DNA of 11,846 nt, taken from positions 1 through 11,846 of the forward strand of contig JBFXGD010000107.1 of the NCBI GenBank assembly GCA_050178385.1, given 5' to 3'. Within the stretch, counting starts at the first letter, position 1; each line of letters begins with the position of its first letter. Shown piece by piece: positions 1,177 through 11,846 of this stretch. Both the position numbers and the translations under genes were made by a program. Source of the stretch: Calditrichaceae bacterium. GTDB taxonomy: Bacteria; Calditrichota; Calditrichia; Calditrichales; JBFXGD01. The notes beneath the pieces were generated by a model. The model was not told the DNA's origin. It saw nothing but the letters and a program-made list of their open reading frames with translations, and did not search any database.

Positions 1177-1355
1177 AAAATAAACAAACCTTATTTTATC
1201 CACCGATCCTAACATAGGGCCATCCCCAATGCCTGCCAGGGTAGGAATCGTTCTTTCGGATTTCAATCCTTCAATCTGTAACACAATTTGATCCAAACAG
1301 ATATCCCCCTTTGATGATGCCTGCGATATTCTGGATAGGTCATCTCGCACAATCT

Positions 1356-1433
1356 AAAGAATGTTTTCATTCCTTTTAAGATATAAATCATTTTATATTG
1401 ACATATAAAGGATGATGTGATTCATATATTTTC
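1356..1433 (+). promoter_or_regulatory. Candidate promoter/operator region of the xre-cas operon
   Basis: Consensus -35 TTGACA at 1398-1403, with only a weak -10 at canonical spacing. Inverted repeats GAATG-N4-CATTC (1359-1372), ATATAAA-N4-TTTATAT (1381-1398) and ATGA-N6-TCAT (1412-1425). No SD in front of ATG 1434. Confidence 0.45.
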
Positions 1434-2552
1434 ATGGATCAGAGTCTCAGCTTTATAGGAAAAAATATTCGTTTCTATCGCAGGTCAAGAAATTGGACCC
1501 TGAAACAACTGGCATCTAAAATCGGAATACAGGAAGGCCCGCTTGGCAGAATTGAAAGAGGGCAGAACCTGCCTTCTGCAACAGTGATTTTTCAGCTGTC
1601 TCAGGTTCTCAATATTCCTACTGATGCTATTTTTGCCTCCCGGATTTCAGAGGCCCAGGCAGTTGTTGAGACAGATTCCCTATTTATGACAACTGGATCT
1701 GAATCATTGCCCGCACCTTTGATAGATGCCTGTCAGGAGATAATGACGGCTTTCCACTGTCTTGAAGATGTCTGTCAGGTACAAAAATATGCCAAGCTCC
1801 CTCTTTTCATTCCTTTTGAACCAAATTATTCCGGCATGGAACAACTATCTGAAATGGTTAGAAATTATCTTGGCATCAGTGATGCGATTGTCTTTGATTA
1901 TTTTGAACTCTTTGAAAATTTTGGCCTGCGAATCCTGGTTTTTCCATTCATGAAGCAGGCCAGGGACATTGGCGCTGTTTCCTTCTATGAGCCCGACTAT
2001 CACAATGCATTTTTTTTCCTCAATGCTTTAAAAAACCCAGAAAAACAATTGTTTTCTCTTGCCCTTGAATTGGGCAAAATTCTCATTTTCAATCAGATAA
2101 AAAACTGCAGAGATAAATATCTTTTCGTCCCTGTCGCTAAAGAACAAGAGCGTCCCATTAATGAACTCCGCGCTGCTAAACGATTTGCCGCAACCTTTCT
2201 TACGCCAGCAACAGCCGTCCATGCCACTATCAGTCAGTTGGGTATTATTCCTGAGAATTGGACGTGGGACCTGCTCTTGAGAATTAAACACCGCTTCGGC
2301 GTATCAGCGGAATCATTCCTGTATCGCCTAAAAGAGTTGAACCTTATTTCCGATAAGTCGGCAGAAGAGATTCAATCCAGAATCCAAACCTTTTACAAAA
2401 ATACTCGATATAAGGAACCGGGTTCGTCCAAAAGAATTCTTAACTCCAATGGTCGTTTTTTTGACTTGCTGTTAACGGCATCATCCATCGAATCGGAAGA
2501 AACAGAAGAGATTCATGAAGTAGTGAACCGGTATAAAATTATGTGCGGGTAA
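1434..2552 (+). CDS. XRE-family HTH transcriptional regulator fused to an ImmA/IrrE (DUF955)-like domain with a degenerate HExxH motif
   Basis: N-terminal Cro/C1 HTH (IGKNIRFYRRSRNWTLKQLASKIGI...IERGQNLPS...LSQVLNI). C-terminal DUF955 signatures: EKQLFSLALELGKIL (consensus about RqrFTLAHELGHl), AKRFAATFLTP and FGVSAESFLYRLKELNLI. 372 aa. Confidence 0.85.
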   Translation: MDQSLSFIGKNIRFYRRSRNWTLKQLASKIGIQEGPLGRIERGQNLPSATVIFQLSQVLNIPTDAIFASRISEAQAVVETDSLFMTTGSESLPAPLIDACQEIMTAFHCLEDVCQVQKYAKLPLFIPFEPNYSGMEQLSEMVRNYLGISDAIVFDYFELFENFGLRILVFPFMKQARDIGAVSFYEPDYHNAFFFLNALKNPEKQLFSLALELGKILIFNQIKNCRDKYLFVPVAKEQERPINELRAAKRFAATFLTPATAVHATISQLGIIPENWTWDLLLRIKHRFGVSAESFLYRLKELNLISDKSAEEIQSRIQTFYKNTRYKEPGSSKRILNSNGRFFDLLLTASSIESEETEEIHEVVNRYKIMCG

Positions 2553-2570
2553 TATTCAAGGAGGCTTGAC

Positions 2571-3584
2571 ATTCAACTAATAGTCAACTCAAGCGGAACT
2601 CTGATCAAACAGAGAAATGAAATATTTTTGTTCCAGAACAAGGAAAACAAACTTGAATTGTCACCACTTAAGCTGGAGTCAATCATTATTTCCAACCAGG
2701 CCATGATCTCAACAGCGGCTATCTCCTTGGCGCTGGAGCACAACATTGATCTCGTATTTCTTGATAAATACGGCTTTCCTTTAGGCAGGGTCTGGTTCTC
2801 TAAAATGGGTTCCACTGCAACGATTCGGAGAAAGCAACTCGAAGCAGCAGAAGTCGATATCGGGGTGAAACTGGTGCTTGGTATGATACAAAATAAATTG
2901 GAAAACCAAATTGCTTTTCTAAAGAAACTCAAATACGCCCGACCAGATAAAAAGGATCTGTTTGACACCCCCATACATACTATTCAGGGGTCCCTCGAAT
3001 CTTTGGACTGCGATCTCAGGGATCTTGAAGAATCCCGATCTCTTATTATGGGGCTTGAAGGCGCTGCCGGTCGAGCTTACTTTTCCTGCATTTCCAGAAT
3101 TATGCCGGAAAACTATCGTTTTAAAGGGCGCTCAAGACATCCGGCATTGGACCCATTTAACGCGGCCTTGAATTATTGCTATGGCGTCCTTTATTCACAA
3201 GTTGAGAAAGCCTGTATCATTGCAGGGCTTGATCCTTTTGTAGGATTCATGCATACGGATAACTACAACAAAAAATCTTTGGTCTTCGACCTCATTGAGC
3301 CTTTTCGTATTTTTGCAGATCAGGTATCAGTCTATTTTTTTACCGGCAAAAAAGCAAAAGACGAATACTTTCATATCCAGGAAAAGTCCTGCTCACTCAA
3401 CACAAAAGGCAAACCACATATCATAGAGGCACTTAACAATCACCTTGAAGAAAAGGTCCGTTACCGCAATAAAAATGTAAAAAGAAAACACATCATAAGT
3501 CACGAGGCGCACCGTTTAGCCAACATTCTTTTGGAGGATTCAGGAATGGCACGTCCCGACTGGCTCGAAATAAAGGAGTTCTAA
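2571..3584 (+). CDS. cas1: CRISPR-associated integrase Cas1 (337 aa from a probable ATT start; the ORF track gives TTG 2628)
   Basis: IDLVFLDKYGFPLGR, MGLEGAAGRAYF, DPFNAALNYCYGVLY, GLDPFVGFMH and LVFDLIEPFR, so catalytic E/H/acidic residues are present. The frame is open upstream to give xQLIVNSSGTLIKQRNEIF, like Cas1 N-termini. SD AAGGAGG at 2558-2564 lies 6 nt before ATT 2571. Confidence 0.95.
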   Translation: MQLIVNSSGTLIKQRNEIFLFQNKENKLELSPLKLESIIISNQAMISTAAISLALEHNIDLVFLDKYGFPLGRVWFSKMGSTATIRRKQLEAAEVDIGVKLVLGMIQNKLENQIAFLKKLKYARPDKKDLFDTPIHTIQGSLESLDCDLRDLEESRSLIMGLEGAAGRAYFSCISRIMPENYRFKGRSRHPALDPFNAALNYCYGVLYSQVEKACIIAGLDPFVGFMHTDNYNKKSLVFDLIEPFRIFADQVSVYFFTGKKAKDEYFHIQEKSCSLNTKGKPHIIEALNNHLEEKVRYRNKNVKRKHIISHEAHRLANILLEDSGMARPDWLEIKEF

Positions 3585-3585
3585 A

Positions 3586-3885
3586 ATGAGTTCCATCCTG
3601 GCTTGGATTATGTACGATATTGCAGAAAACAAAAGCCGGAACAAGGTAGCAAAAACTTGCAAAAAATATGGCCTGACCCGGGTCCAGAAGAGTATCTTTC
3701 TTGGCCGTCTGGACATCAACCGCTTCGACGAACTGGCCGAACACTGCCTGGATCTTATGAATGAAGACACAGACAGTGTCTACCTCTTTCCCTTTTGCCA
3801 GGAGGATTTTCGCCGCATCCACGTTTTGGGACAGGGTTTTGACCGGAAACTGGTGAATGATGAAATTCTTTCTAAATTCTTTTAA
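3586..3885 (+). CDS. cas2: CRISPR-associated Cas2
   Basis: 99 aa with WIMYDI, YGLTRVQKSIFLG and DSVYLFP. Follows cas1; SD AAGGAG at 3573-3578. Confidence 0.95.
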   Translation: MSSILAWIMYDIAENKSRNKVAKTCKKYGLTRVQKSIFLGRLDINRFDELAEHCLDLMNEDTDSVYLFPFCQEDFRRIHVLGQGFDRKLVNDEILSKFF

Positions 3886-3902
3886 CGTTGGAAACTCATG
3901 AC

Positions 3903-4568
3903 ATGAAAAAAGCTGTCTTAAAATTAAACAATGTTTCCCTGAAACCCGAGCAGGTTCACAAGTTGCGAGGTTTTGTCGGAAATTTATTCAAAGATCACGA
4001 TCTAATCCACAATCATAATCAGGAAACGGGCAAGGTCATATATCGTTATCCCTTAGTTCAGTTCAAGCTGATTGACCGGGTTCCATCTATTCTATGTGTC
4101 ACGGAAAAGGCGGTGACGGTGTTCCATGATCTTTTTATGAAACTGGATACCGTTACCATCGACGGCATGGAAATCCCAATTTTTGAAAAAGACTTGAAAT
4201 TGGAGGACGTGGCTTTCGGCTATTCAGATGAGACATTTGTCTACGAGTTCCAGAGTCCCTGGATCGGGCTTAACCAGAAAAACTACGCTGAATACGAAAA
4301 CACTCCTGATGAAACCGCACGCAAAGATCTGCTCAAACGTATTCTCACCGGCAACATCCTGTCCATGAGCAAATTTCTTGACGACCGACTTGCACCTGGC
4401 CAGACCATCCGTACGGATCTGACTGTTAAACCCGGGGCTGTAAAATTAAAGGGGAAATCCATGATAGGCTTTAAAGGCGTGATCAAAACCAATTTCATAA
4501 TTCCGGATTACCTGGGCCTTGGCAAATCGGTGTCGAGGGGCTTCGGAGTTGTCAGGAGGATCATATGA
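3903..4568 (+). CDS. cas6: crRNA-processing endoribonuclease Cas6 (Cas6b type)
   Basis: LRGFVG, LIHNH and YRYPLVQFK (Cas6b-like catalytic region), SPWIGLNQKNY, and C-terminal G-loop YLGLGKSVSRGFG. Start is ATG 3903 or TTG 3888. Confidence 0.92.
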   Translation: MKKAVLKLNNVSLKPEQVHKLRGFVGNLFKDHDLIHNHNQETGKVIYRYPLVQFKLIDRVPSILCVTEKAVTVFHDLFMKLDTVTIDGMEIPIFEKDLKLEDVAFGYSDETFVYEFQSPWIGLNQKNYAEYENTPDETARKDLLKRILTGNILSMSKFLDDRLAPGQTIRTDLTVKPGAVKLKGKSMIGFKGVIKTNFIIPDYLGLGKSVSRGFGVVRRII

Positions 4569-6427
4569 TAGAAGCCATTGCCGAATTGGGCAGGCATGCC
4601 CTTGCACAGGACCCATCTGTGTCCATGTTTGATATCTGGCTTGAGGACTCTTACAATGATGGACAAAATGAGCACTTGTTTCTTGTTGTTTTTGAGAAAA
4701 CGGGCGATGCCTGGTATTACAAAGGGATTGATTACCGGCAAAACGGAAAAGCTTTAAAGGCCAAGCTCCTCTATAAACGCGGTTCTTCACGTGGGAGTAA
4801 CAAAACACCCACAGGACAGGTATCCGCAGATATCGGTAAGACCTTTGACCAAAGAATCAAAGGCTGGTTTGAAGCATATTGTGAAGCAAGTTTTCTTGAT
4901 AAAGACGACCAGACATTTCTTACAAATATCAGGGATGTTATCCAGGATCACGGGGCAGACATCCGTGAAGATTTGAATAGCAAGCTGCAACAAGTTGAGG
5001 GTAAAGGAGCTGTCCTTTCGGTTTTGTTTATTGATGGGGGGCAACCCAAATTCCCGGGCGACTATCCGTTCTTTTCTCGATTTATTACTGAAGAATGTGT
5101 CAAAGAATATAAATACTCAAAAACGTTTAAAAAGTACTCTTATTCCAACCAATCGACCTGTTCGGTCTGCAAGCAAATAAAAGATGAGGTTTTTGGATAT
5201 TTTACTACGCTGAAGTTTTACAACGTGGATAAACCGGGCATGGTTTCAGGTGGTTTCCGGCAAGATCAAAGCTGGAAAAATTATCCGGTTTGCCTGGATT
5301 GCGCTTTGAATATCGAAATGGGCATTAAGGTTATGGAGTCTAACCTTGATTATAGTCTTTATGGACTGCGGTATTACCTAATTCCCAAACTCATTCGTCC
5401 TACAGGCTCGGACCCTTATCTTCTTGATACGATTTTTAATCTTAAAAAAGATTTGAAGATCAACGATCAGGACAGGCAGACCATTACCGGCCAGGAAGAT
5501 GAAGTTTTTGATCTGGTGAAAGAGGAAGAGAATCAGATCAGTTTTAATCTTGTTTTTTACGACAAGCCCCAAAAAGAAGTGTTTCGGATTCTTGCTAATA
5601 TCGAAGATGTTTTGCCCTCCCGGATCAGATGTCTGTATGATGTAAAGGACTGTGTGGACCGAATCGTATTTTTTCAGAAATTATCCAAAGAAGGGAAACG
5701 GATTTTTCGGTTTCATTTCGGCGTGATCAGGCAGTTTTTTCCCAACGATAAAATGAATGGAAATTATAATAAATCATTTCTTCAAATCGTGGATAATGTG
5801 TTTAAGAGTGCATCCATCGGGTACTCTTTTGTTCTGAGCCACATCATGAAAATTGTGAGAAAAGCATTTATTGCCGAGGAGAATGATTGGTTTTTCACTC
5901 TTCAAGGATGGATGTTGCTTATTTATTTAAACGAACTTGGCATATTAACCGACAACTGCGAAAAGGAAAGACCTATGGATCAGATGTTTTTTCAATCATT
6001 CGAAATAACGTCCAAAGAGGAGTTTGAAGATAAAGTGACTTTTTTCTTTGAGACATTCCAGAATTTTTTCAGGACAGATGCCCATAAAGGGGTTTTTCTC
6101 CTTGGGGTATTAACAAAACTATTACTGAACATTCAGTCTCAGGAAAGAAACTCAACCCCCTTCCGCTCGCGTCTGAAGGGGCTTAAGATGGACAGCCGGG
6201 ATCTGATCGGTCTGCTGCCTATAATCGTCGATAAACTCGAACAGTACCAAAAAAATTACTATTCTCGTCTTGAAACACTGATTTCCAAATTCATGATTGC
6301 AGCCGGGGATCACAATAAGTGGGAGATCCCACTGGATGAGCTGAACTATATTTTTGTCCTTGGTATGAACCTGTCCGACTATTTTAAAATCGAAAAATCG
6401 GAAAAGAATACCGTTACTAATCCCTAA
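4565..6427 (+). CDS. cas8b: Type I-B large subunit Cas8b (TM1802/Csh1 family)
   Basis: 620 aa between cas6 and cas7. MIEAIAELG start, CSVC...FYNVDKPG...YPVCLDC Zn-type motifs, C-terminal FLLGVLT...LLNIQ...PF and YIFVLGM. ATGA overlap with cas6 and SD AGGAGG. Confidence 0.9.
   Translation: MIEAIAELGRHALAQDPSVSMFDIWLEDSYNDGQNEHLFLVVFEKTGDAWYYKGIDYRQNGKALKAKLLYKRGSSRGSNKTPTGQVSADIGKTFDQRIKGWFEAYCEASFLDKDDQTFLTNIRDVIQDHGADIREDLNSKLQQVEGKGAVLSVLFIDGGQPKFPGDYPFFSRFITEECVKEYKYSKTFKKYSYSNQSTCSVCKQIKDEVFGYFTTLKFYNVDKPGMVSGGFRQDQSWKNYPVCLDCALNIEMGIKVMESNLDYSLYGLRYYLIPKLIRPTGSDPYLLDTIFNLKKDLKINDQDRQTITGQEDEVFDLVKEEENQISFNLVFYDKPQKEVFRILANIEDVLPSRIRCLYDVKDCVDRIVFFQKLSKEGKRIFRFHFGVIRQFFPNDKMNGNYNKSFLQIVDNVFKSASIGYSFVLSHIMKIVRKAFIAEENDWFFTLQGWMLLIYLNELGILTDNCEKERPMDQMFFQSFEITSKEEFEDKVTFFFETFQNFFRTDAHKGVFLLGVLTKLLLNIQSQERNSTPFRSRLKGLKMDSRDLIGLLPIIVDKLEQYQKNYYSRLETLISKFMIAAGDHNKWEIPLDELNYIFVLGMNLSDYFKIEKSEKNTVTNP
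5975..6427 (+). CDS. cas11: Probable internally translated small subunit Cas11 (150 aa), in frame inside cas8b
   Basis: AAGGA (5963-5967) lies 7 nt before in-frame ATG 5975 (KERP|MDQMFF...), at the linker before the helical C-terminal domain. Internal Cas11 translation is established for types I-B, I-C and I-D. Confidence 0.65.
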   Translation: MDQMFFQSFEITSKEEFEDKVTFFFETFQNFFRTDAHKGVFLLGVLTKLLLNIQSQERNSTPFRSRLKGLKMDSRDLIGLLPIIVDKLEQYQKNYYSRLETLISKFMIAAGDHNKWEIPLDELNYIFVLGMNLSDYFKIEKSEKNTVTNP

Positions 6428-6439
6428 GGAGGTTCCAAA

Positions 6440-7441
6440 ATGACTGATATAAACAAACGCAGTGAATTACTTTTTCTCTATGACATTGAGAATTCGAATC
6501 CCAACGGAGACCCCAACGATGAAAACAAGCCTAGAATTGATGAAGAAACAGGCCGGAACATCGTGACTGATGTAAGACTGAAACGTACAGTCCGGGATTA
6601 CCTGTTTGAAAAAGGAAAAGATATTTTTGTTCAAGAAAAAGTCTACGATGATGAAGGCCATATACAGGATGCAAAACTCAGAGCACTGGATTATCTCAGG
6701 GATCAGGAGGATTTAAGTAACAAGAAAGCCGAGGAGCAGAAACAGATCATTTCCCGGAACATTCTGGGGGAGTGCATTGATGTTCGCCTTTTTGGTGCAA
6801 CGATTCCGCTGGACCTAAAGGTTAAGGATGGGAACAAAACAAAAAGCGTTTCCAGTTCATTGACCTATACGGGGCCGGTCCAGTTTAAAATGGGAAAATC
6901 GGTGCATGGGGTTAAAATCATGCATGTGAAAGGAACCGGTGCCTTTGCATCGAAAGAGGGGGCAACAAAGAAAACATTCAGGGAAGAGTACGTCCTTCCA
7001 TATTCGCTAATCGGGTTTTACGGAATTGTGAATGAAAATGCTGCGAAACACACCAAGCTTACCGAGGAGGATATGGCTGATCTTAAAAAGGCCATGTGGA
7101 ACGGCACCAAAGGTCTGATTTCAAGATCTAAGTTCGGTCAGATGCCAAGGCTGCTTTTGTGCATCACTTATAACGAACCTAATTTTTTTATCGGGGAACT
7201 GGATAACCGTATCCGCCTCAAAGCAGATTGCATTGATTCCAAAATCAGGAAACCGGAAGATTACGCTGTAGACCTTACTGAGCTTGTGGAAACCGTCAAA
7301 TTACATAAAGATAAAATCAAAAGTGTGGGATATGTGAGTGACAGAAAAATGAGTTACCTGATTAACGGGAAACCCATTACCCTTGATTGTAAGGAATTGA
7401 AACAACTTAATTTTATAGACGAATCTGCTGAGGTCCTGTGA
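6440..7441 (+). CDS. cas7: Type I-B backbone subunit Cas7 (Csh2/Cas7b)
   Basis: NPNGDPNDENKPRID, VTDVRLKRTVRDY, IDVRLFGAT, TGPVQF and SRSKFGQMPRLLL. SD TAAGGAGG. Confidence 0.95.
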   Translation: MTDINKRSELLFLYDIENSNPNGDPNDENKPRIDEETGRNIVTDVRLKRTVRDYLFEKGKDIFVQEKVYDDEGHIQDAKLRALDYLRDQEDLSNKKAEEQKQIISRNILGECIDVRLFGATIPLDLKVKDGNKTKSVSSSLTYTGPVQFKMGKSVHGVKIMHVKGTGAFASKEGATKKTFREEYVLPYSLIGFYGIVNENAAKHTKLTEEDMADLKKAMWNGTKGLISRSKFGQMPRLLLCITYNEPNFFIGELDNRIRLKADCIDSKIRKPEDYAVDLTELVETVKLHKDKIKSVGYVSDRKMSYLINGKPITLDCKELKQLNFIDESAEVL

Positions 7442-8148
7442 TGGGCAAAGCGCTTTCTTTTATACTGAGGGGGGATTACGGTCATTTCAAGAAATATTAC
7501 ACCACCACCTCCCCCCTGACATTCGAGTTTCCTCCGCCACCTACGATAATTGGTATCGTATCCGCCATTATCGGTCTTGACAAAGAAACATATCTCCATC
7601 ATTTCCCGGACAATTCCTGGAAAATTGCCGTGTGTATTACCAGGACCGTTAAAAAGGTCAGGTGGACAGTGAATATGGTTGATACGAAACAGCATTTCTG
7701 GAGGATCAAGAACCGGACCCAGATCCGGACCGAATACCTTAAGGACCCCGAGTTCAGAATTTACTTTTATCACTCGGATAAGGATTTGTATGAGCTGTTG
7801 AAAGAAAAGCTTTCCAGCCATCAATCCGTGTATACAGTATCCCTTGGCTTAAGCGAACTTATCGGAGATTTCTCCTTTGAAGGTGAATGGCCTCTTACGG
7901 AGTGTGACGATACCGGATTTCAGGAAATCCGTTCGGTGGTTCCCGTGTCCTGTTTGCAGGATGACTCCTCCGTGGCTTTTGACAGTGGCCTGGAGTTGTT
8001 CAAAGTCAATTATCCGGTGTCAATGGCCCCGGATCGCACGGTGACAAGACGGGACGATGTCTTATTTGAGCGTTGTGCCAGGAGCATCTCCTGCAAAGTT
8101 CGCCAATCATTTGATACAGGTAAAGGTGACCGTATTGTGTTCTTCTGA
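7441..8148 (+). CDS. cas5: Type I-B Cas5 (Cas5h/Cas5b)
   Basis: GDYGHFKKYYTTTSPLTFEFPPPPTIIGIVSAIIGL and EYLKDPEFRIY...VYTVSLGLSE. Start is ATG 7441 or GTG 7438, overlapping the cas7 stop. Confidence 0.93.
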   Translation: MGKALSFILRGDYGHFKKYYTTTSPLTFEFPPPPTIIGIVSAIIGLDKETYLHHFPDNSWKIAVCITRTVKKVRWTVNMVDTKQHFWRIKNRTQIRTEYLKDPEFRIYFYHSDKDLYELLKEKLSSHQSVYTVSLGLSELIGDFSFEGEWPLTECDDTGFQEIRSVVPVSCLQDDSSVAFDSGLELFKVNYPVSMAPDRTVTRRDDVLFERCARSISCKVRQSFDTGKGDRIVFF

Positions 8149-10531
8149 GCTGCTTTCCCACCCTGAAAAACGGCTTATTGATCATATGGGACGGGTAGCC
8201 GAGGCCTGTGTCTCAAAATTTAATGAAGATCAGAGCAACTTTGGACAATATTTCAGCCTTGACCATTGGAAGTGTCTGATATGGCTTATGGGCTTTTTTC
8301 ATGACATCGGCAAGGCCACGTCTTTTTTTCAGGAATACCTGGTAGAAAAAAACGAAGATAAAAAACAGGTCATGAAAAATGATCCCATGACCAGGCATGG
8401 CCTTCTATCCGCTGTGATCGCACATTTCTGTGTATCCCTGTATTGTGAAGCGTATCCGGAAAAAAACGATGTGTGGCAAGTTATGCCATTGTTTATTTTT
8501 CTTTGCATCAAAAGGCACCATGGGAATATGGGAAACGCCATCCGGTTTAAGGGCTCGGACAATGAATTGGACAGTACTGAGCCAACGCATTTGGATGCCC
8601 AGATTCAAGCATGTTCAAAGGCGGAAATAGATGATTTCCTGAAACATATGGAGCAAAAAACCGGACTTGAGCTTTCAGCAGAAGAGTTTCCACATTCCTG
8701 GCAAAATTATTATACAAAAAATATCGCCAGAGCTGAAAACAGGAAGCTCTTTAGAATCCCCCAAAACACCGAACACTATTTCATTTTTCAGTACCTGTTT
8801 TCTCTGTTGCTGCATTCGGATAAAGAGGAGGCTATTTTCAGCGGTTCCCTGAGTATCAAACGCAGTCCTATCCCGGACCATATTGTCCGGGATTACATAA
8901 CACGGCAGTTCGGGAAACCTGAAAACAGGATGGATCAAATACGATCGAATATATTTGATGATGCGGAACGATCCATTATGGATGCGGATATCCGGTCAAA
9001 CCATATTTTTTCGTTAAATGTCCCCACAGGTACAGGGAAGACGTTCACCTGCCTGTCGGTGGCACTTAAACTGAGAAAACGGCTGGAAAAGCCGGGGCCA
9101 ATACCTCGAATTATTTACGCCCTTCCATTTACCAGCATTATTGATCAGAATTATGAAGTCTTCAAAAAGGTGCTTTCCGTTCCCGATTCATCAATCCTAT
9201 TGAAACACCACCATCTGGCAGATATGTGTTACTCAGCCGGGCTTGACGAATTTGAAACCGGTGAATCCAAATTTTTGATTGAAAGTTGGACGTCTGAAAT
9301 CATCGTGACTACCATGTTTCAGGTTTTTCATACCTTTTTTACGAATAGAAACAGGATGATTCAGAAATTCAGGATGTTTGCCAATGCCATCGTACTTCTT
9401 GATGAGGTTCAATCTCTGCCGTACAAGTACTGGGTGATCGTCAGAAAAAGCATGAAACTCATGGCCAGCCTTTTACACACCCGATTCATTCTGATTACGG
9501 CCACTCAGCCCAAACTATTTGAAGACAATGAAATCATCGAACTGGTCCCGGATAAGCAAAAGTATTTTTCCCAACTGGACAGGGTGACCCTGACCTTCCA
9601 TGAAACGCCCCTCACGTTATCTGACTATGCTGAGCTTTGCAAAGATGGAGTGCGGACGAGCGACGAATCATTTCTATTTGTTATGAATACGGTCAATTCT
9701 GCGATAATTCTGTATCAAGCTCTGGCTAATGTCGATCCAGATGCGGATTGTTTTTTTCTGTCCACCAATATTATCCCGACTCACCGCCGGAAACGTATCC
9801 GGGATATCAAAGAAAGTTCCCGGAAAAAAATTATAGTTTCAACGCAGATGATTGAAGCCGGTGTAGATATTGACGTGGAAAATGTCTGGCGGGATTCGGG
9901 GCCGTTAGAATCCATCAATCAAGTGTGCGGCAGATGTAACCGAAATTTTAAAGAAGGCCGTAAAGGCCGTGTCCGTCTTTTTCAGATCCTGGATGAGAAT
10001 AATAGAAATACGCCATTTGAAAAATATGTTTATGGAGAAAATGCCCTGTCCATGCTGGAAACTAAAACCATTATCTCGGAAAAGCCTGAAATCTCCGAAA
10101 CGGATTTTCTCCAAAACATGGATCGATATTACGCGGAAATTCAATCCAAACAAAACAATGAAGGTTCAAATGAGCTCCTTGAATATATGGACAACCTTCA
10201 GTTTCAGAATGTTTATAAAAATTTTCACCTCATTGACCCGGTTAATTATGATTTGAAAGACGTGTTTATTGAATGGGATGAAACAGCCCAATCAGTCTGG
10301 AAGAAATACCTGGAGATCAAATCCTTTTGTAATCCGATAAAAAGAAAAGAGGCTTTTCTGAAGATTCGAAAAACACTTTATGATTATGTCCTGTCAGTTC
10401 CGTCGAAATATGTGCCTGATCAAGAGTTTGAAGGGACATTTTTAGTATATACCTGGCGCGACTCGCTTTCAGCATGTTATGATGAGGCTACCGGCTGGAA
10501 AAGAGATACGGGCGGGACTTTGGCTTTTTAG
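8135..10531 (+). CDS. cas3: Cas3 HD nuclease-helicase
   Basis: SHPEKRLIDH, HDIGK and RHHG (HD domain); PTGTGKT (Walker A), LLDEVQ (Walker B), ITATQP, STQMIEAGVDID and QVCGRCNR. Start placed at TTG 8135 behind AAGGTG (8123-8128) rather than ATG 8057, which would overlap cas5 by 92 nt. Confidence 0.95.
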   Translation: MCSSELLSHPEKRLIDHMGRVAEACVSKFNEDQSNFGQYFSLDHWKCLIWLMGFFHDIGKATSFFQEYLVEKNEDKKQVMKNDPMTRHGLLSAVIAHFCVSLYCEAYPEKNDVWQVMPLFIFLCIKRHHGNMGNAIRFKGSDNELDSTEPTHLDAQIQACSKAEIDDFLKHMEQKTGLELSAEEFPHSWQNYYTKNIARAENRKLFRIPQNTEHYFIFQYLFSLLLHSDKEEAIFSGSLSIKRSPIPDHIVRDYITRQFGKPENRMDQIRSNIFDDAERSIMDADIRSNHIFSLNVPTGTGKTFTCLSVALKLRKRLEKPGPIPRIIYALPFTSIIDQNYEVFKKVLSVPDSSILLKHHHLADMCYSAGLDEFETGESKFLIESWTSEIIVTTMFQVFHTFFTNRNRMIQKFRMFANAIVLLDEVQSLPYKYWVIVRKSMKLMASLLHTRFILITATQPKLFEDNEIIELVPDKQKYFSQLDRVTLTFHETPLTLSDYAELCKDGVRTSDESFLFVMNTVNSAIILYQALANVDPDADCFFLSTNIIPTHRRKRIRDIKESSRKKIIVSTQMIEAGVDIDVENVWRDSGPLESINQVCGRCNRNFKEGRKGRVRLFQILDENNRNTPFEKYVYGENALSMLETKTIISEKPEISETDFLQNMDRYYAEIQSKQNNEGSNELLEYMDNLQFQNVYKNFHLIDPVNYDLKDVFIEWDETAQSVWKKYLEIKSFCNPIKRKEAFLKIRKTLYDYVLSVPSKYVPDQEFEGTFLVYTWRDSLSACYDEATGWKRDTGGTLAF

Positions 10532-10552: not shown

Positions 10553-11143
10553 ATGAATAACAGCTTTTCTTTAACGGCAACCCATCTTCTGGAATATCTG
10601 TACTGCCCTCGTTACACCTACTTTGAGCATGTACTTGCTATCCCAGAGAACCAAGGAAATCGTTTCAAAGTCCAAAAAGGCCGCACCGTTCACGAAAAAA
10701 TAAGGTCCATGAACCCTGACTATTTGCGAAAGAAAATAGGCGTGGTCGATAAAAAAGCAGATATGTACCTTTCCAACCAGGGAATGCGTGGGGTTGTTGA
10801 CGAGATCCTTTTTCTTGATGACGGCACTGCGGCGCCATTGGATTACAAATATGCCGAATACAAGGACCGGGTGTTTAAAACCTATAAGCTCCAACTTGCG
10901 TTTTATGGACGATTGATTGAAAAAAATTATGATGTCCCGGTAAACAGAGGATTTATCATCTATACCCGGAGTAAAAATAAGTTGATAGATGTTCCCCTGA
11001 CCGGTAAAAATTATGATGAACTAGAAATGACGATGCACGGAATTGCCGATGTGATTGACCGTTGCCGTTTTCCGCAACCCACCACGGTAAAAAATAGGTG
11101 TTCGGATTGTTGTTACAGGAATTTATGCAGTGGTGGCCAATAA
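10553..11143 (+). CDS. cas4: Cas4 RecB-like nuclease
   Basis: EYLYCPR, GRTVH, GVVD, LDYK, QLAFY and C-terminal CSDCCYRNLC (Fe-S cysteines). 196 aa. Confidence 0.93.
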   Translation: MNNSFSLTATHLLEYLYCPRYTYFEHVLAIPENQGNRFKVQKGRTVHEKIRSMNPDYLRKKIGVVDKKADMYLSNQGMRGVVDEILFLDDGTAAPLDYKYAEYKDRVFKTYKLQLAFYGRLIEKNYDVPVNRGFIIYTRSKNKLIDVPLTGKNYDELEMTMHGIADVIDRCRFPQPTTVKNRCSDCCYRNLCSGGQ

Positions 11144-11398
11144 AAGAATTGATCGTTGACTATGGGAGTGATAAAAATCATATAATCCATTAAATGGTGG
11201 TTTAAAAAAAATGATTGATCCAAAATTATTGGGGTTTTCGTTAAAATATAAATATGAACTATAAAAACAATCAGTTTTAGACCTCTGGTAACTCCCAATA
11301 AGGTGGTTTTATAACATGTGCCTTCAAAACGATCAAATTTCGCTCTTTGAAAATTTATGTAAACCGATTGATTTTAATGAAGATTTTAAAAAAATGGG
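11144..11398 (+). promoter_or_regulatory. AT-rich CRISPR leader
   Basis: 255-bp non-coding AT-rich stretch between cas4 and the first perfect repeat. TTGACT (11156-11161) and TATAAT (11181-11186) are separated by 19 bp. Confidence 0.8.
11361..11373 (-). promoter_or_regulatory. IHF-like binding site in the leader
   Basis: The minus strand reads AATCAATCGGTTT, one mismatch to WATCAANNNNTTR, ending 25 bp before repeat 1. Confidence 0.45.
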
Positions 11399-11846
11399 CT
11401 TCCGGAACCACTTCCAGAACAACAAGGATTGAAACATCGTTACAATAGTTGCAACTGTATTTCATTTTTCAACTTCCGGAACCACTTCCAGAACAACAAG
11501 GATTGAAACCAAACTCAAGCTCCCGTAGTTCGTCCTCGGACATGCTTCCGGAACCACTTCCAGAACAACAAGGATTGAAACAACCAGATTGAAGATAAGG
11601 GAGATTTATAGCATGACTTCCGGAACCACTTCCAGAACAACAAGGATTGAAACCAAACGTCCTGTCGTTTATAACAGTTCCATCCATTCTTCCGGAACCA
11701 CTTCCAGAACAACAAGGATTGAAACTTGGAGAGTAACAAGTCCGTAAAGCGCCAATTTTTCTTCCGGAACCACATCCAGAACAACAATGATTGAAACTTA
11801 ACACCAAGGAAAAATAAGCCAGCAATAAAAAACTTACGGAACCACT
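11399..11846 (+). CRISPR. CRISPR array, 37-bp repeat CTTCCGGAACCACTTCCAGAACAACAAGGATTGAAAC, runs off the window end
   Basis: Repeats start at 11399, 11473, 11545, 11617 and 11689 (identical), 11761 (T14A, G28T) and 11833 (partial, C4A). Spacers are 37, 35, 35, 35, 35 and 35 bp. The 3' ATTGAAAC handle and the leader position give + orientation. Confidence 0.99.

Follow-up and report, generated by a model that had tools for sequence, protein, structure and literature searches.

A conserved family of XRE regulators with a catalytically dead ImmA/IrrE-fold domain heads type I CRISPR-Cas operons

Control of type I CRISPR-Cas systems in bacteria is known mostly through global regulators (H-NS/LeuO, CRP, quorum sensing), and dedicated regulators encoded in cis with CRISPR loci are known mainly from archaea and from type III signalling. 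The controller (C) proteins of restriction-modification (R-M) systems are encoded by the first gene of a defence operon and exert feedback through a pair of operators in their own promoter, some of them being translated from leaderless mRNA. CapH and CapP are encoded upstream of the operon they regulate and divergently from it, and CapH-CapP fusions occur beside 15 CBASS systems and DISARM, the available text of the report mentioning no link to CRISPR-Cas (10.1101/2022.04.27.489752). RmrA/ImmA is described as a promiscuous antitoxin hub that often carries an N-terminal helix-turn-helix (HTH) domain (PMC10440598; Millman preprint), and PrpR/RamB combine an XRE HTH with an IrrE-like domain in which HExxH is not conserved and which senses a ligand (CoA, 4Fe-4S) (PMC6765138). 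Here we analyse a gene for an XRE-type regulator with a degenerate Peptidase_M78 (ImmA/IrrE) domain that stands first in a type I-B cas operon on a contig assigned to a Calditrichaceae bacterium (GCA_050178385.1, JBFXGD010000107.1; C107). The window is this entire contig of 11,846 bp, from an assembly of 3.89 Mb in 320 contigs. A published description of a CRISPR-linked XRE-pseudo-M78 regulator was not found in a literature search that did not extend to supplementary tables or subscription journals; the main text of the Shmakov preprint on CRISPR-linked genes, as available, mentions neither peptidase nor XRE, and the available text of the 2025 CRISPR classification has no mention of XRE, peptidase, M78 or ImmA.

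The regulator gene (1434-2552, + strand) encodes a protein of 372 amino acids (aa) with an XRE HTH, a degenerate M78 domain and a conserved C-terminal motif. An earlier note on this DNA, made from the letters alone, had described the open reading frame (ORF) as an XRE HTH fused to an apparently inactive peptidase, and both domains were found above their Pfam cut-offs: HTH_3 at residues 12-64 (1467-1625, +; E 1.9e-10, 41 bits against a cut-off of 23) and Peptidase_M78 (PF06114) at residues 164-300 (1923-2333, +; E 2.4e-11, 43.9 bits against 22). The two departures from the zinc-peptidase motifs that the same note had pointed out were also confirmed. HExxH is replaced by LELGK (residues 211-215; 2064-2078, +), which a PDB sequence search aligned to HEFVH of the intact XRE-M78 protein 9vzy_A, and in ELRAAKRFA (residues 244-252; 2163-2189, +) the E-x-x-A-x-x-F-A register puts L245 at the position of the third zinc ligand, with E244 off by one residue. 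Both the HExxH and the third-ligand Glu that mark members of Peptidase_M78/ImmA-IrrE are therefore missing, and, judged by its residues, the protein has lost all three zinc ligands, which rules out metallopeptidase activity. The C-terminal motif (residues 328-349; 2415-2480, +) is specific to the family, with E328, P329, R334, N339, G340, R341, F342, D344, L345 and A349 invariant, and forms part of a predicted dimer interface.

The genomic context of relatives was surveyed in 80 loci collected with the family alignment from one-genome-per-species contigs, in which ORFs were called and the neighbours clustered and labelled with Pfam and NCBIfam; one locus (L017), whose focal ORF was not kept by the ORF picker, was left out, giving 79. 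With Pfam-labelled neighbours, cas genes were among the next four ORFs in 43 of the 59 loci with at least 1500 bp of downstream DNA, always on the same strand, and six further loci had cas3 or cas1 farther down, behind interposed genes. A second scan seeded with more distant members added 63 loci, the majority of them belonging to Verrucomicrobiota, Kiritimatiellia, Lentisphaerae and Akkermansia. The ORF picker handled 51 of these, 34 had enough downstream DNA, and by neighbour labels 25 of the 34 had cas genes. For a uniform count, hidden Markov models (HMMs) were trained on those Cas clusters of the first set that Pfam had confirmed, covering only Cas1, Cas2, Cas3, Cas2-3, Cas5, Cas6, Cas7, Cas8c, Cse1 and Csy1, and were run against all stop-to-stop ORFs of at least 80 aa in loci with at least 1500 bp downstream. 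Same-strand cas genes were found downstream of the regulator in 51/60 loci of the first, Desulfobacterota-centred set, a count that is partly circular as the HMMs were built from that set, and in 31/45 loci of the second set (Verrucomicrobiota/Kiritimatiellia/Lentisphaerae), with no cas gene upstream or on the opposite strand in either. Control XRE-M78 proteins with an intact HExxH had none downstream (0/68) and none upstream or opposite; this count and that of the second set are independent of HMM training. Both sets together thus place a same-strand cas gene downstream of the regulator in 82/105 loci. The gap from the regulator to the first cas ORF had a median of 276 nt, measured stop-to-stop, compared with 18 nt in the window.

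The operons headed in this way belong to several subtypes: I-C (cas3-cas5-cas8c-cas7), I-B (cas1-cas2-cas6b), I-F (cas1, cas2-3, csy1), I-E (cas3, cse1, cse2) and I-G (Cas3g, GSU0053, GSU0054, Cas8g2), and some of them begin with cas6. The family is therefore one of conserved, catalytically dead ImmA/IrrE-fold XRE regulators heading type I CRISPR-Cas operons. Because the relatives stand at the head of operons from at least five subtypes and from two bacterial groups that are far apart, always upstream on the same strand where cas genes were found, against 0/68 controls, the directional linkage points to a dedicated, possibly signal-responsive CRISPR switch. The proposal of a dedicated CRISPR regulator in the earlier note is supported by this linkage and by the enrichment beside cas genes over intact-motif controls, the sign of the regulation and the signal being matters of interpretation; its tie to type I-B suits the window locus, whereas the family as a whole also heads I-C, I-E, I-F and I-G operons.

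Many loci have one to six same-strand genes interposed between the regulator and cas. These encode ORF6N (PDC-S05), YhcG (PDC-S02), Fic (SoFic), PDC-M59A with Doc, a DnaQ-like exonuclease, RhuM, DUF5131 with TcmP, four-helix-bundle 'IVP' proteins and a HEAT_CxxC_PD-DExK protein, and the cargo before cas is variable, for example in L040, L055, L057, L064, L066, L068, L099, L101 and L125. This suggests that other defence genes use the promoter of the regulator as a landing pad.

Such neighbours also bear on a different explanation, in which the protein is a RosmerTA-type (RmrA-like) antitoxin, or the remnant of one, whose partner is a toxin and whose adjacency to cas follows from the clustering of genes in defence islands. 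Toxin-like or defence-candidate genes (Fic/SoFic, Doc, YhcG/PDC-S02, ORF6N/PDC-S05) do lie between regulator and cas in many relatives, and RmrA, with the antitoxin-hub character and frequent N-terminal HTH cited above, was the best PADLOC match over nearly the full length of the protein (PDLC03949, residues 10-333, E 2.4e-28, 97 bits, in a collection without curated cut-off). The NCBIfam model of the spr1629 family repressor/antitoxin (NF052239) also matched residues 7-329 (E 1.1e-13), with a score of 51 bits that falls far under its cut-off of 335. There is, however, no toxin candidate in the window, where cas1 follows after 18 nt and the sole upstream ORF is a fragment of an IS701 transposase on the opposite strand, and in 21 loci of the first set cas3 is the immediately next gene. 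Across the loci the identity of the next gene varies (cas3, cas1, cas6) while strand and order stay constant, a pattern more readily explained by promoter control than by the neutralisation of a single protein, and the intact-motif XRE-M78 proteins that make up the bulk of RmrA-like proteins were without cas neighbours in all 68 cases. We therefore regard an antitoxin role as improbable.

The loss of the zinc site seen in the window was followed through the family. A word-indexed protein search returned 430 proteins at E <= 1e-3, the best 120 being 53-91% identical to the query and mostly from Desulfobacterales metagenome bins. Among the query and these 120 homologues, neither motif position carried His in any of the 121 sequences (HExxH 0/121), while the Glu was kept in 120. 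The same was found in the genome loci, with HExxH in 0/77 and Glu in 72/77 of the first, Desulfobacterota-centred set, and HExxH in 0/63 and Glu in 50/63 of the second set, centred on the Planctomycetota-Verrucomicrobiota-Chlamydiota (PVC) group; the column of the third ligand was variable in all three sets. The loss of both His residues, which the earlier note could read in one sequence, is thus conserved across the clade. An exhaustive search of 1.84 billion representatives gave 2118 proteins at E <= 1e-3 and 86 at <= 1e-30, and a complete HExxH was present in 8 of the 118 aligned top representatives, all among the more distant ones. Since these distant HExxH-bearing relatives share the other family hallmarks, the clade descends from active peptidases and has lost the site. 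A genome scan with alignment A4, aimed at the closest relatives with intact HExxH, returned mostly generic XRE-M78 proteins at 22-32% identity, which served as the controls above, and a single close member (L161), which is followed by genes for TIM and SecG. A metagenome scan found no close intact-HExxH members, the sole cas-linked locus (L242) encoding a degenerate YELGG-type protein, and in a plasmid collection the matches were all below 28% identity and named 'XRE family transcriptional regulator'.

The fold of the regulator was modelled with AlphaFold2 (AF2) using 37 family members (mean pLDDT 78.8, pTM 0.77), with low confidence in the linker of residues 68-93. A Foldseek search of the PDB returned nothing at E <= 0.001, the best rows being PprI/IrrE at about 1e-3, with the PrpR/RamB-type entries 6cyy and 6cz6 also listed. 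With a second structural aligner, residues 128-330 matched CapP (7t5t; Z 10.7, root-mean-square deviation (rmsd) 3.6, 164 residues aligned) and PprI/IrrE bound to single-stranded DNA (ssDNA) (8sln; Z 10.5, rmsd 4.6, 170 aligned), and the HTH domain matched those of C.AhdI, SinR and ImmR at Z 11-12. The matches to CapP and PprI support the ImmA/IrrE assignment made earlier from the sequence, and by its predicted structure the M78-like domain is a true ImmA/IrrE-fold homologue.

A homologue of this kind might still be a working protease switch, i.e. a fused CapH-CapP-like protein using non-canonical residues that cleaves itself between the HTH and the peptidase domain upon DNA damage and so frees the promoter. 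The CapH-CapP fusions known beside CBASS and DISARM provide a precedent for the architecture, the motif Glu is kept in 120/121 close relatives, H108, E111 and D112 are invariant in the linker region, and the low-confidence segment at 68-93 is what a cleavable linker might look like in a model. On the other hand, both His residues and the third ligand are absent from every family member examined, and the Glu itself is lost in 13 of the 63 members of the second set, which are equally cas-linked. CapH/CapP are, moreover, divergent from their operon, whereas the window regulator is co-oriented and first. The chance that the protein works as a protease is consequently slim.

A role of the domain in oligomerisation is suggested by the predicted homodimer. 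Prediction with two copies of the chain gave a score of 0.49 (runs 0.49, 0.54 and 0.38) compared with 0.06 for the best control, above a mark that was reached by 20/30 proteins with solved homodimeric structures and by 1/23 with single-chain structures in a calibration that is rough, as the regulator's own alignment was used. The runs agreed in at least 90% of contacts, with a partner pLDDT of at least 79. The interface residues (114-117, 147-164, 267-284 and 333-352) belong to the peptidase-like domain and the C-terminal motif and include the invariant Q268, G270, W276, R283, I284, R334, R341, D344 and L345. The regulator is thus predicted to form a homodimer through its peptidase-like domain, and the earlier suggestion of an oligomerisation module gains support to the extent of this model.

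The region upstream of the gene has a layout shared by the family, which consists of TTGACA, 5 nt, an A/T-rich and partly palindromic 16-nt site, and the ATG about 12-14 nt later with no Shine-Dalgarno sequence before it. An exact TTGACA occurred at a similar distance from the ATG in 76/81 sources (the 80 loci and the window) and was used as anchor. In the window this -35-like hexamer occupies 1398-1403 (+), or positions -36..-31 when the A of the ATG is counted as +1, and the ATG is not preceded by a Shine-Dalgarno sequence; a hexamer placed at about -36..-31 would correspond to a leaderless mRNA or one with a very short leader. The proximal operator candidate is the 16-nt site between hexamer and start codon (1409-1424), and the distal one is a perfect 5+4+5 palindrome (1359-1372) inside a 16-nt site starting 52 nt farther upstream. 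This window distal site is the best upstream match to the proximal site and lies at the offset typical of the family: the best self-match of the proximal site started 52 nt upstream (-43..-39) in 34/75 loci compared with 4.3 expected if uniform. Matches to a position weight matrix (PWM) trained on the proximal sites were about 25 times denser at -150..-60, outside the training region, than in the rest of the loci, and showed no excess over the 550 nt that follow the regulator gene in family loci. The window proximal site is identical to that of its clade-mate L016 at 12/16 positions. A pair of sites separated by five helical turns, with one lying in the core promoter, is an arrangement that would suit an autoregulating dimeric XRE protein.

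A further inverted repeat, a perfect 7+4+7 at 1392-1409, is centred on the hexamer and could be a second operator candidate or a chance occurrence in A/T-rich DNA. Hexamer-centred palindromes were modestly enriched: complementarity was 7/7 in the window and averaged 3.79 of 7 in the family compared with 2.55 in shifted controls, and at least 6 of 7 positions paired in 9/76 sources compared with 1.6% of shifted controls. In the PVC group several promoters instead have a palindrome overlapping the hexamer (at least 5 of 6 in 4/42). Elsewhere in the window the half-site pattern gave 7 matches compared with 4.7 expected, none of them in the CRISPR leader. That the regulator controls only itself or an unlinked regulon and is a passenger of cas operons without effect on them would account for the loci without cas in the available DNA (9/60 and 14/45), among which some adjoin housekeeping genes (fumarase and pyruvate:ferredoxin oxidoreductase (PFOR) after L073, ribosomal genes after L074), and for the many CRISPR loci of carrier genomes, the majority, that are without a regulator, but it is very improbable in view of the strict same-strand upstream position in 82/105 loci from two distant bacterial groups and five subtypes, the short gaps and the finding that no additional operator sites follow the regulator gene.

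The junction with cas1 is as tight as the earlier note had it, with 18 nt separating the two same-strand genes and no site found by a terminator scan between 2303 and 2750. The regulator stop (TAA, 2550-2552) is followed by GGAGG (2560-2564, +), the cas1 ribosome-binding site, and by ATT at 2571. The reading frame of Cas1 has no stop from 2553 onward, and its alignment to the Cas1 Pfam model begins at 2577 with the first model position. No ATG, GTG or TTG occurs in the Cas1 frame before 2628, and the likely start of cas1 is ATT 2571, since that first canonical start lies inside the region the Cas1 model covers. L006 has ATC at the corresponding position behind its own GGAG. Non-canonical ATT/ATC codons thus stand 6-7 nt after GGAG(G), with the first canonical codon 19 codons farther down (window 2553-2630; L006 7121-7200), and a conserved out-of-frame TTG opening a 4-codon ORF overlaps the cas1 start in both.

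Four RNA-labelled sequencing runs mapped to 1300-3300 each yielded one short contig (1560-1757, 2533-2706, 2663-2850 and 2968-3178), and three of the four runs were classed as 'probably DNA'. The metatranscriptome contig of 174 nt is 100% identical to 2533-2706 and spans the start of cas1 (38 nt to its left, 136 nt to its right). We infer that regulator and cas1 are co-transcribed, for which this RNA contig is a weak hint. Near-complete copies of 1300-3300 (0.81-0.92 of sampled words) were also present in sequencing runs of at least two further studies (X3, X5).

Taken as a whole, the protein is likely to be an autoregulated, cis-encoded regulator of the cas operon with a dead peptidase domain that dimerises and probably senses a signal. 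The N-terminal XRE HTH would bind as a dimer to 16-nt sites bracketing the -35-like hexamer of its own promoter, the two operator copies being 52 bp, or about five helical turns, apart. One promoter would drive the regulator and eight cas genes, so that the regulator would feed back on the whole operon; a shared promoter is suggested because no terminator or second operator was detectable between regulator and cas. The dead ImmA/IrrE domain, which makes up the C-terminal two-thirds, would form the dimer interface and, by analogy with its active relatives IrrE/PprI and CapP, both of which ssDNA activates, is probably a sensor that alters DNA binding upon a signal of damage or infection. That the regulator controls the cas operon in cis is, taken by itself, probable. 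Whether it acts mainly as a repressor released by the signal is close to an even call, leaning slightly against: repression is suggested by the proximal site lying inside the core promoter, and activation from the distal site would also be possible. That the signal is ssDNA is unlikely.

Several observations weigh against this reading of an autoregulated cas-operon regulator with a dead sensor domain. At the protein level, the invariant H108, E111 and D112 together with the near-invariant H286 could in principle make another metal site. At the promoter, the 17-nt spacer after TTGACA gives a poor -10 hexamer in the window, the geometry being deduced; the two window sites fall below the family PWM threshold and diverge from the consensus; their self-match is 11/16 (empirical 0.07); and the positional statistics take no account of how closely the loci are related. 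Since a promoter-like match falls at 2221-2248, within the regulator gene, cas could have a promoter of its own, and the contig at 2533-2706 extends only 20 nt left of the regulator stop, is assembly-derived, defines no transcript end and could stem from DNA carry-over. In the survey, no cas gene was found within the available DNA at 9/60 and 14/45 loci, and of about 12 Cas1 loci in five large carrier genomes, 5 are preceded by the regulator on the same strand. The regulator is accordingly a frequent head of cas operons and not an obligatory one: CRISPR-Cas does not require it, and it is not invariably cas-linked.

A maximum-likelihood tree was calculated for 77 regulators (the window and 76 loci), leaving out three partial proteins of less than 300 aa and L017. 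The tree groups by host lineage and not by cas subtype, which needs 34 changes as a label. Sister paralogues in one Desulfococcus bin (L037 and L044) head I-F and I-G operons, and L010 (cas3 first) and L058 (I-F) are also sisters. Carriers include metagenome-assembled genomes labelled Akkermansia (I-C locus, compare L133, L135 and L150), the cultured Desulfobacter strains D. curvatus DSM 3379 (L010) and D. latus AcRS2 (L063), and Desulfamplus magnetovallimortis (L072). One carrier genome (G080) has a second, more distant regulator copy (C1:1849686-1850798, E 4.5e-122) that is near no Cas1 match.

The window regulator sits on a long branch within a Desulfobacteraceae clade. The window's genome has one regulator copy and one cas1, and no match at E <= 1e-30 was found in other genomes of the order (0/33) or phylum (0/77, at least 80% complete). 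Because the regulator is absent from the other 77 genomes of the phylum and the window is nested in the Desulfobacteraceae clade, the cassette seems either to have been horizontally acquired together with the regulator or to lie on a mis-binned contig. The GC content of the contig is 41.7% compared with 41.8% for the genome, and its tetranucleotide distance ranks at the 94th percentile among contigs of comparable length. On its left the cassette is flanked by the IS701/DDE_5 transposase fragment (497-1114, - strand; profile positions 55-113 of 272 matched), a truncated ORF that is also in line with horizontal acquisition or a mis-binned contig. The same assembly contains a second Peptidase_M78 match elsewhere (G000 C219:3508-3849, E 1.8e-7, open frame of 205 aa).

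As a more tentative extension, which we hold to be rather doubtful, the regulator might be a portable, signal-responsive head module. The dead domain would have kept a surface that senses ssDNA or infection and would act allosterically on the fused repressor, so that type I operons and interposed defence cassettes would be induced only on damage or infection. The module would have been exchanged among subtypes within a host lineage, and the window copy would have moved with its cas operon into a phylum otherwise without it.

The remainder of the window is a type I-B locus with all genes on the + strand, assigned by Pfam and NCBIfam (cas6b by Pfam): cas1 (2571-3584, with the probable ATT start), cas2 (3586-3885), cas6b (3888-4568), cas8b of the TM1802/Csh1 family (4565-6427), cas7 (Csh2; 6440-7441), cas5 (Cas5h; 7438-8148), cas3 with HD nuclease and helicase (8057-10531, from the first ATG listed) and cas4 (10553-11143), followed by a CRISPR array (11399-11846, +). 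The I-B assignment follows from the presence of cas8b, cas7 (Csh2), cas5h, cas3, cas6b, cas1, cas2 and cas4 together with the array. As listed, the cas3 ORF overlaps cas5 by 92 nt, and the true start of cas3 is probably a later codon. The gene order places the adaptation genes first and cas4 last, its beginning being common to L006, and differs in this from the usual I-B arrangement. The array has 37-nt repeats with a period of 72, six of them full copies and one cut by the contig end. Within 11761-11846 the final full repeat has two mismatches and the partial repeat at the contig end one; such mismatches are what a trailer end should show, which would make 11144-11398 the leader.

If the preferred reading of a cis-encoded cas-operon regulator is true, the family offers a handle on when bacteria switch CRISPR immunity on and how its cost and autoimmunity are limited. 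It would also be a defence-linked addition to the short list of pseudo-peptidase sensors (PrpR/RamB), and would trace an evolutionary route from pairs of protease and repressor (ImmA/ImmR, IrrE/DdrO, CapP/CapH) to a one-protein allosteric switch.

Compared with the known systems, CapH/CapP, including the fusions, likewise bring an XRE-type HTH and an ImmA/IrrE fold beside an immune operon whose expression they control. CapP, however, has zinc peptidase activity and cleaves CapH in the presence of ssDNA, whereas the window regulator is without all three zinc ligands, and CapH/CapP lie on the opposite strand from their operon, whereas the window regulator is co-oriented and first (same strand in 82/105 loci, opposite in none). 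The PADLOC models of capP and capH matched at E 2.8e-7 and E 0.002, respectively, so that the comparison with CapH/CapP drawn in the earlier note fits in fold and immune context, whereas the closest profile is that of the RosmerTA antitoxin RmrA. RmrA has the same domain order (HTH and ImmA) and a defence context, but is paired with the toxin RmrT and described as a Zn-peptidase, while the window regulator has no toxin neighbour and no zinc site and adjoins a cas operon. The best structural matches of the HTH are the R-M controller proteins C.AhdI, C.BclI and C.Csp231I (Z 11.3-11.8). These proteins of about 80 residues have no sensor domain; in its promoter logic the regulator would resemble them. 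The RamB model matched the HTH part (residues 7-84) only, with 20.8 bits against a cut-off of 700, and PrpR/RamB (the ScfR family of mycobacteria and corynebacteria) have a GAF-like/DUF2083 domain and control carbon metabolism, whereas the window regulator is without such a Pfam match and is cas-linked; they share with it the concept of a pseudo-peptidase sensor within a transcription factor and thereby provide its precedent.

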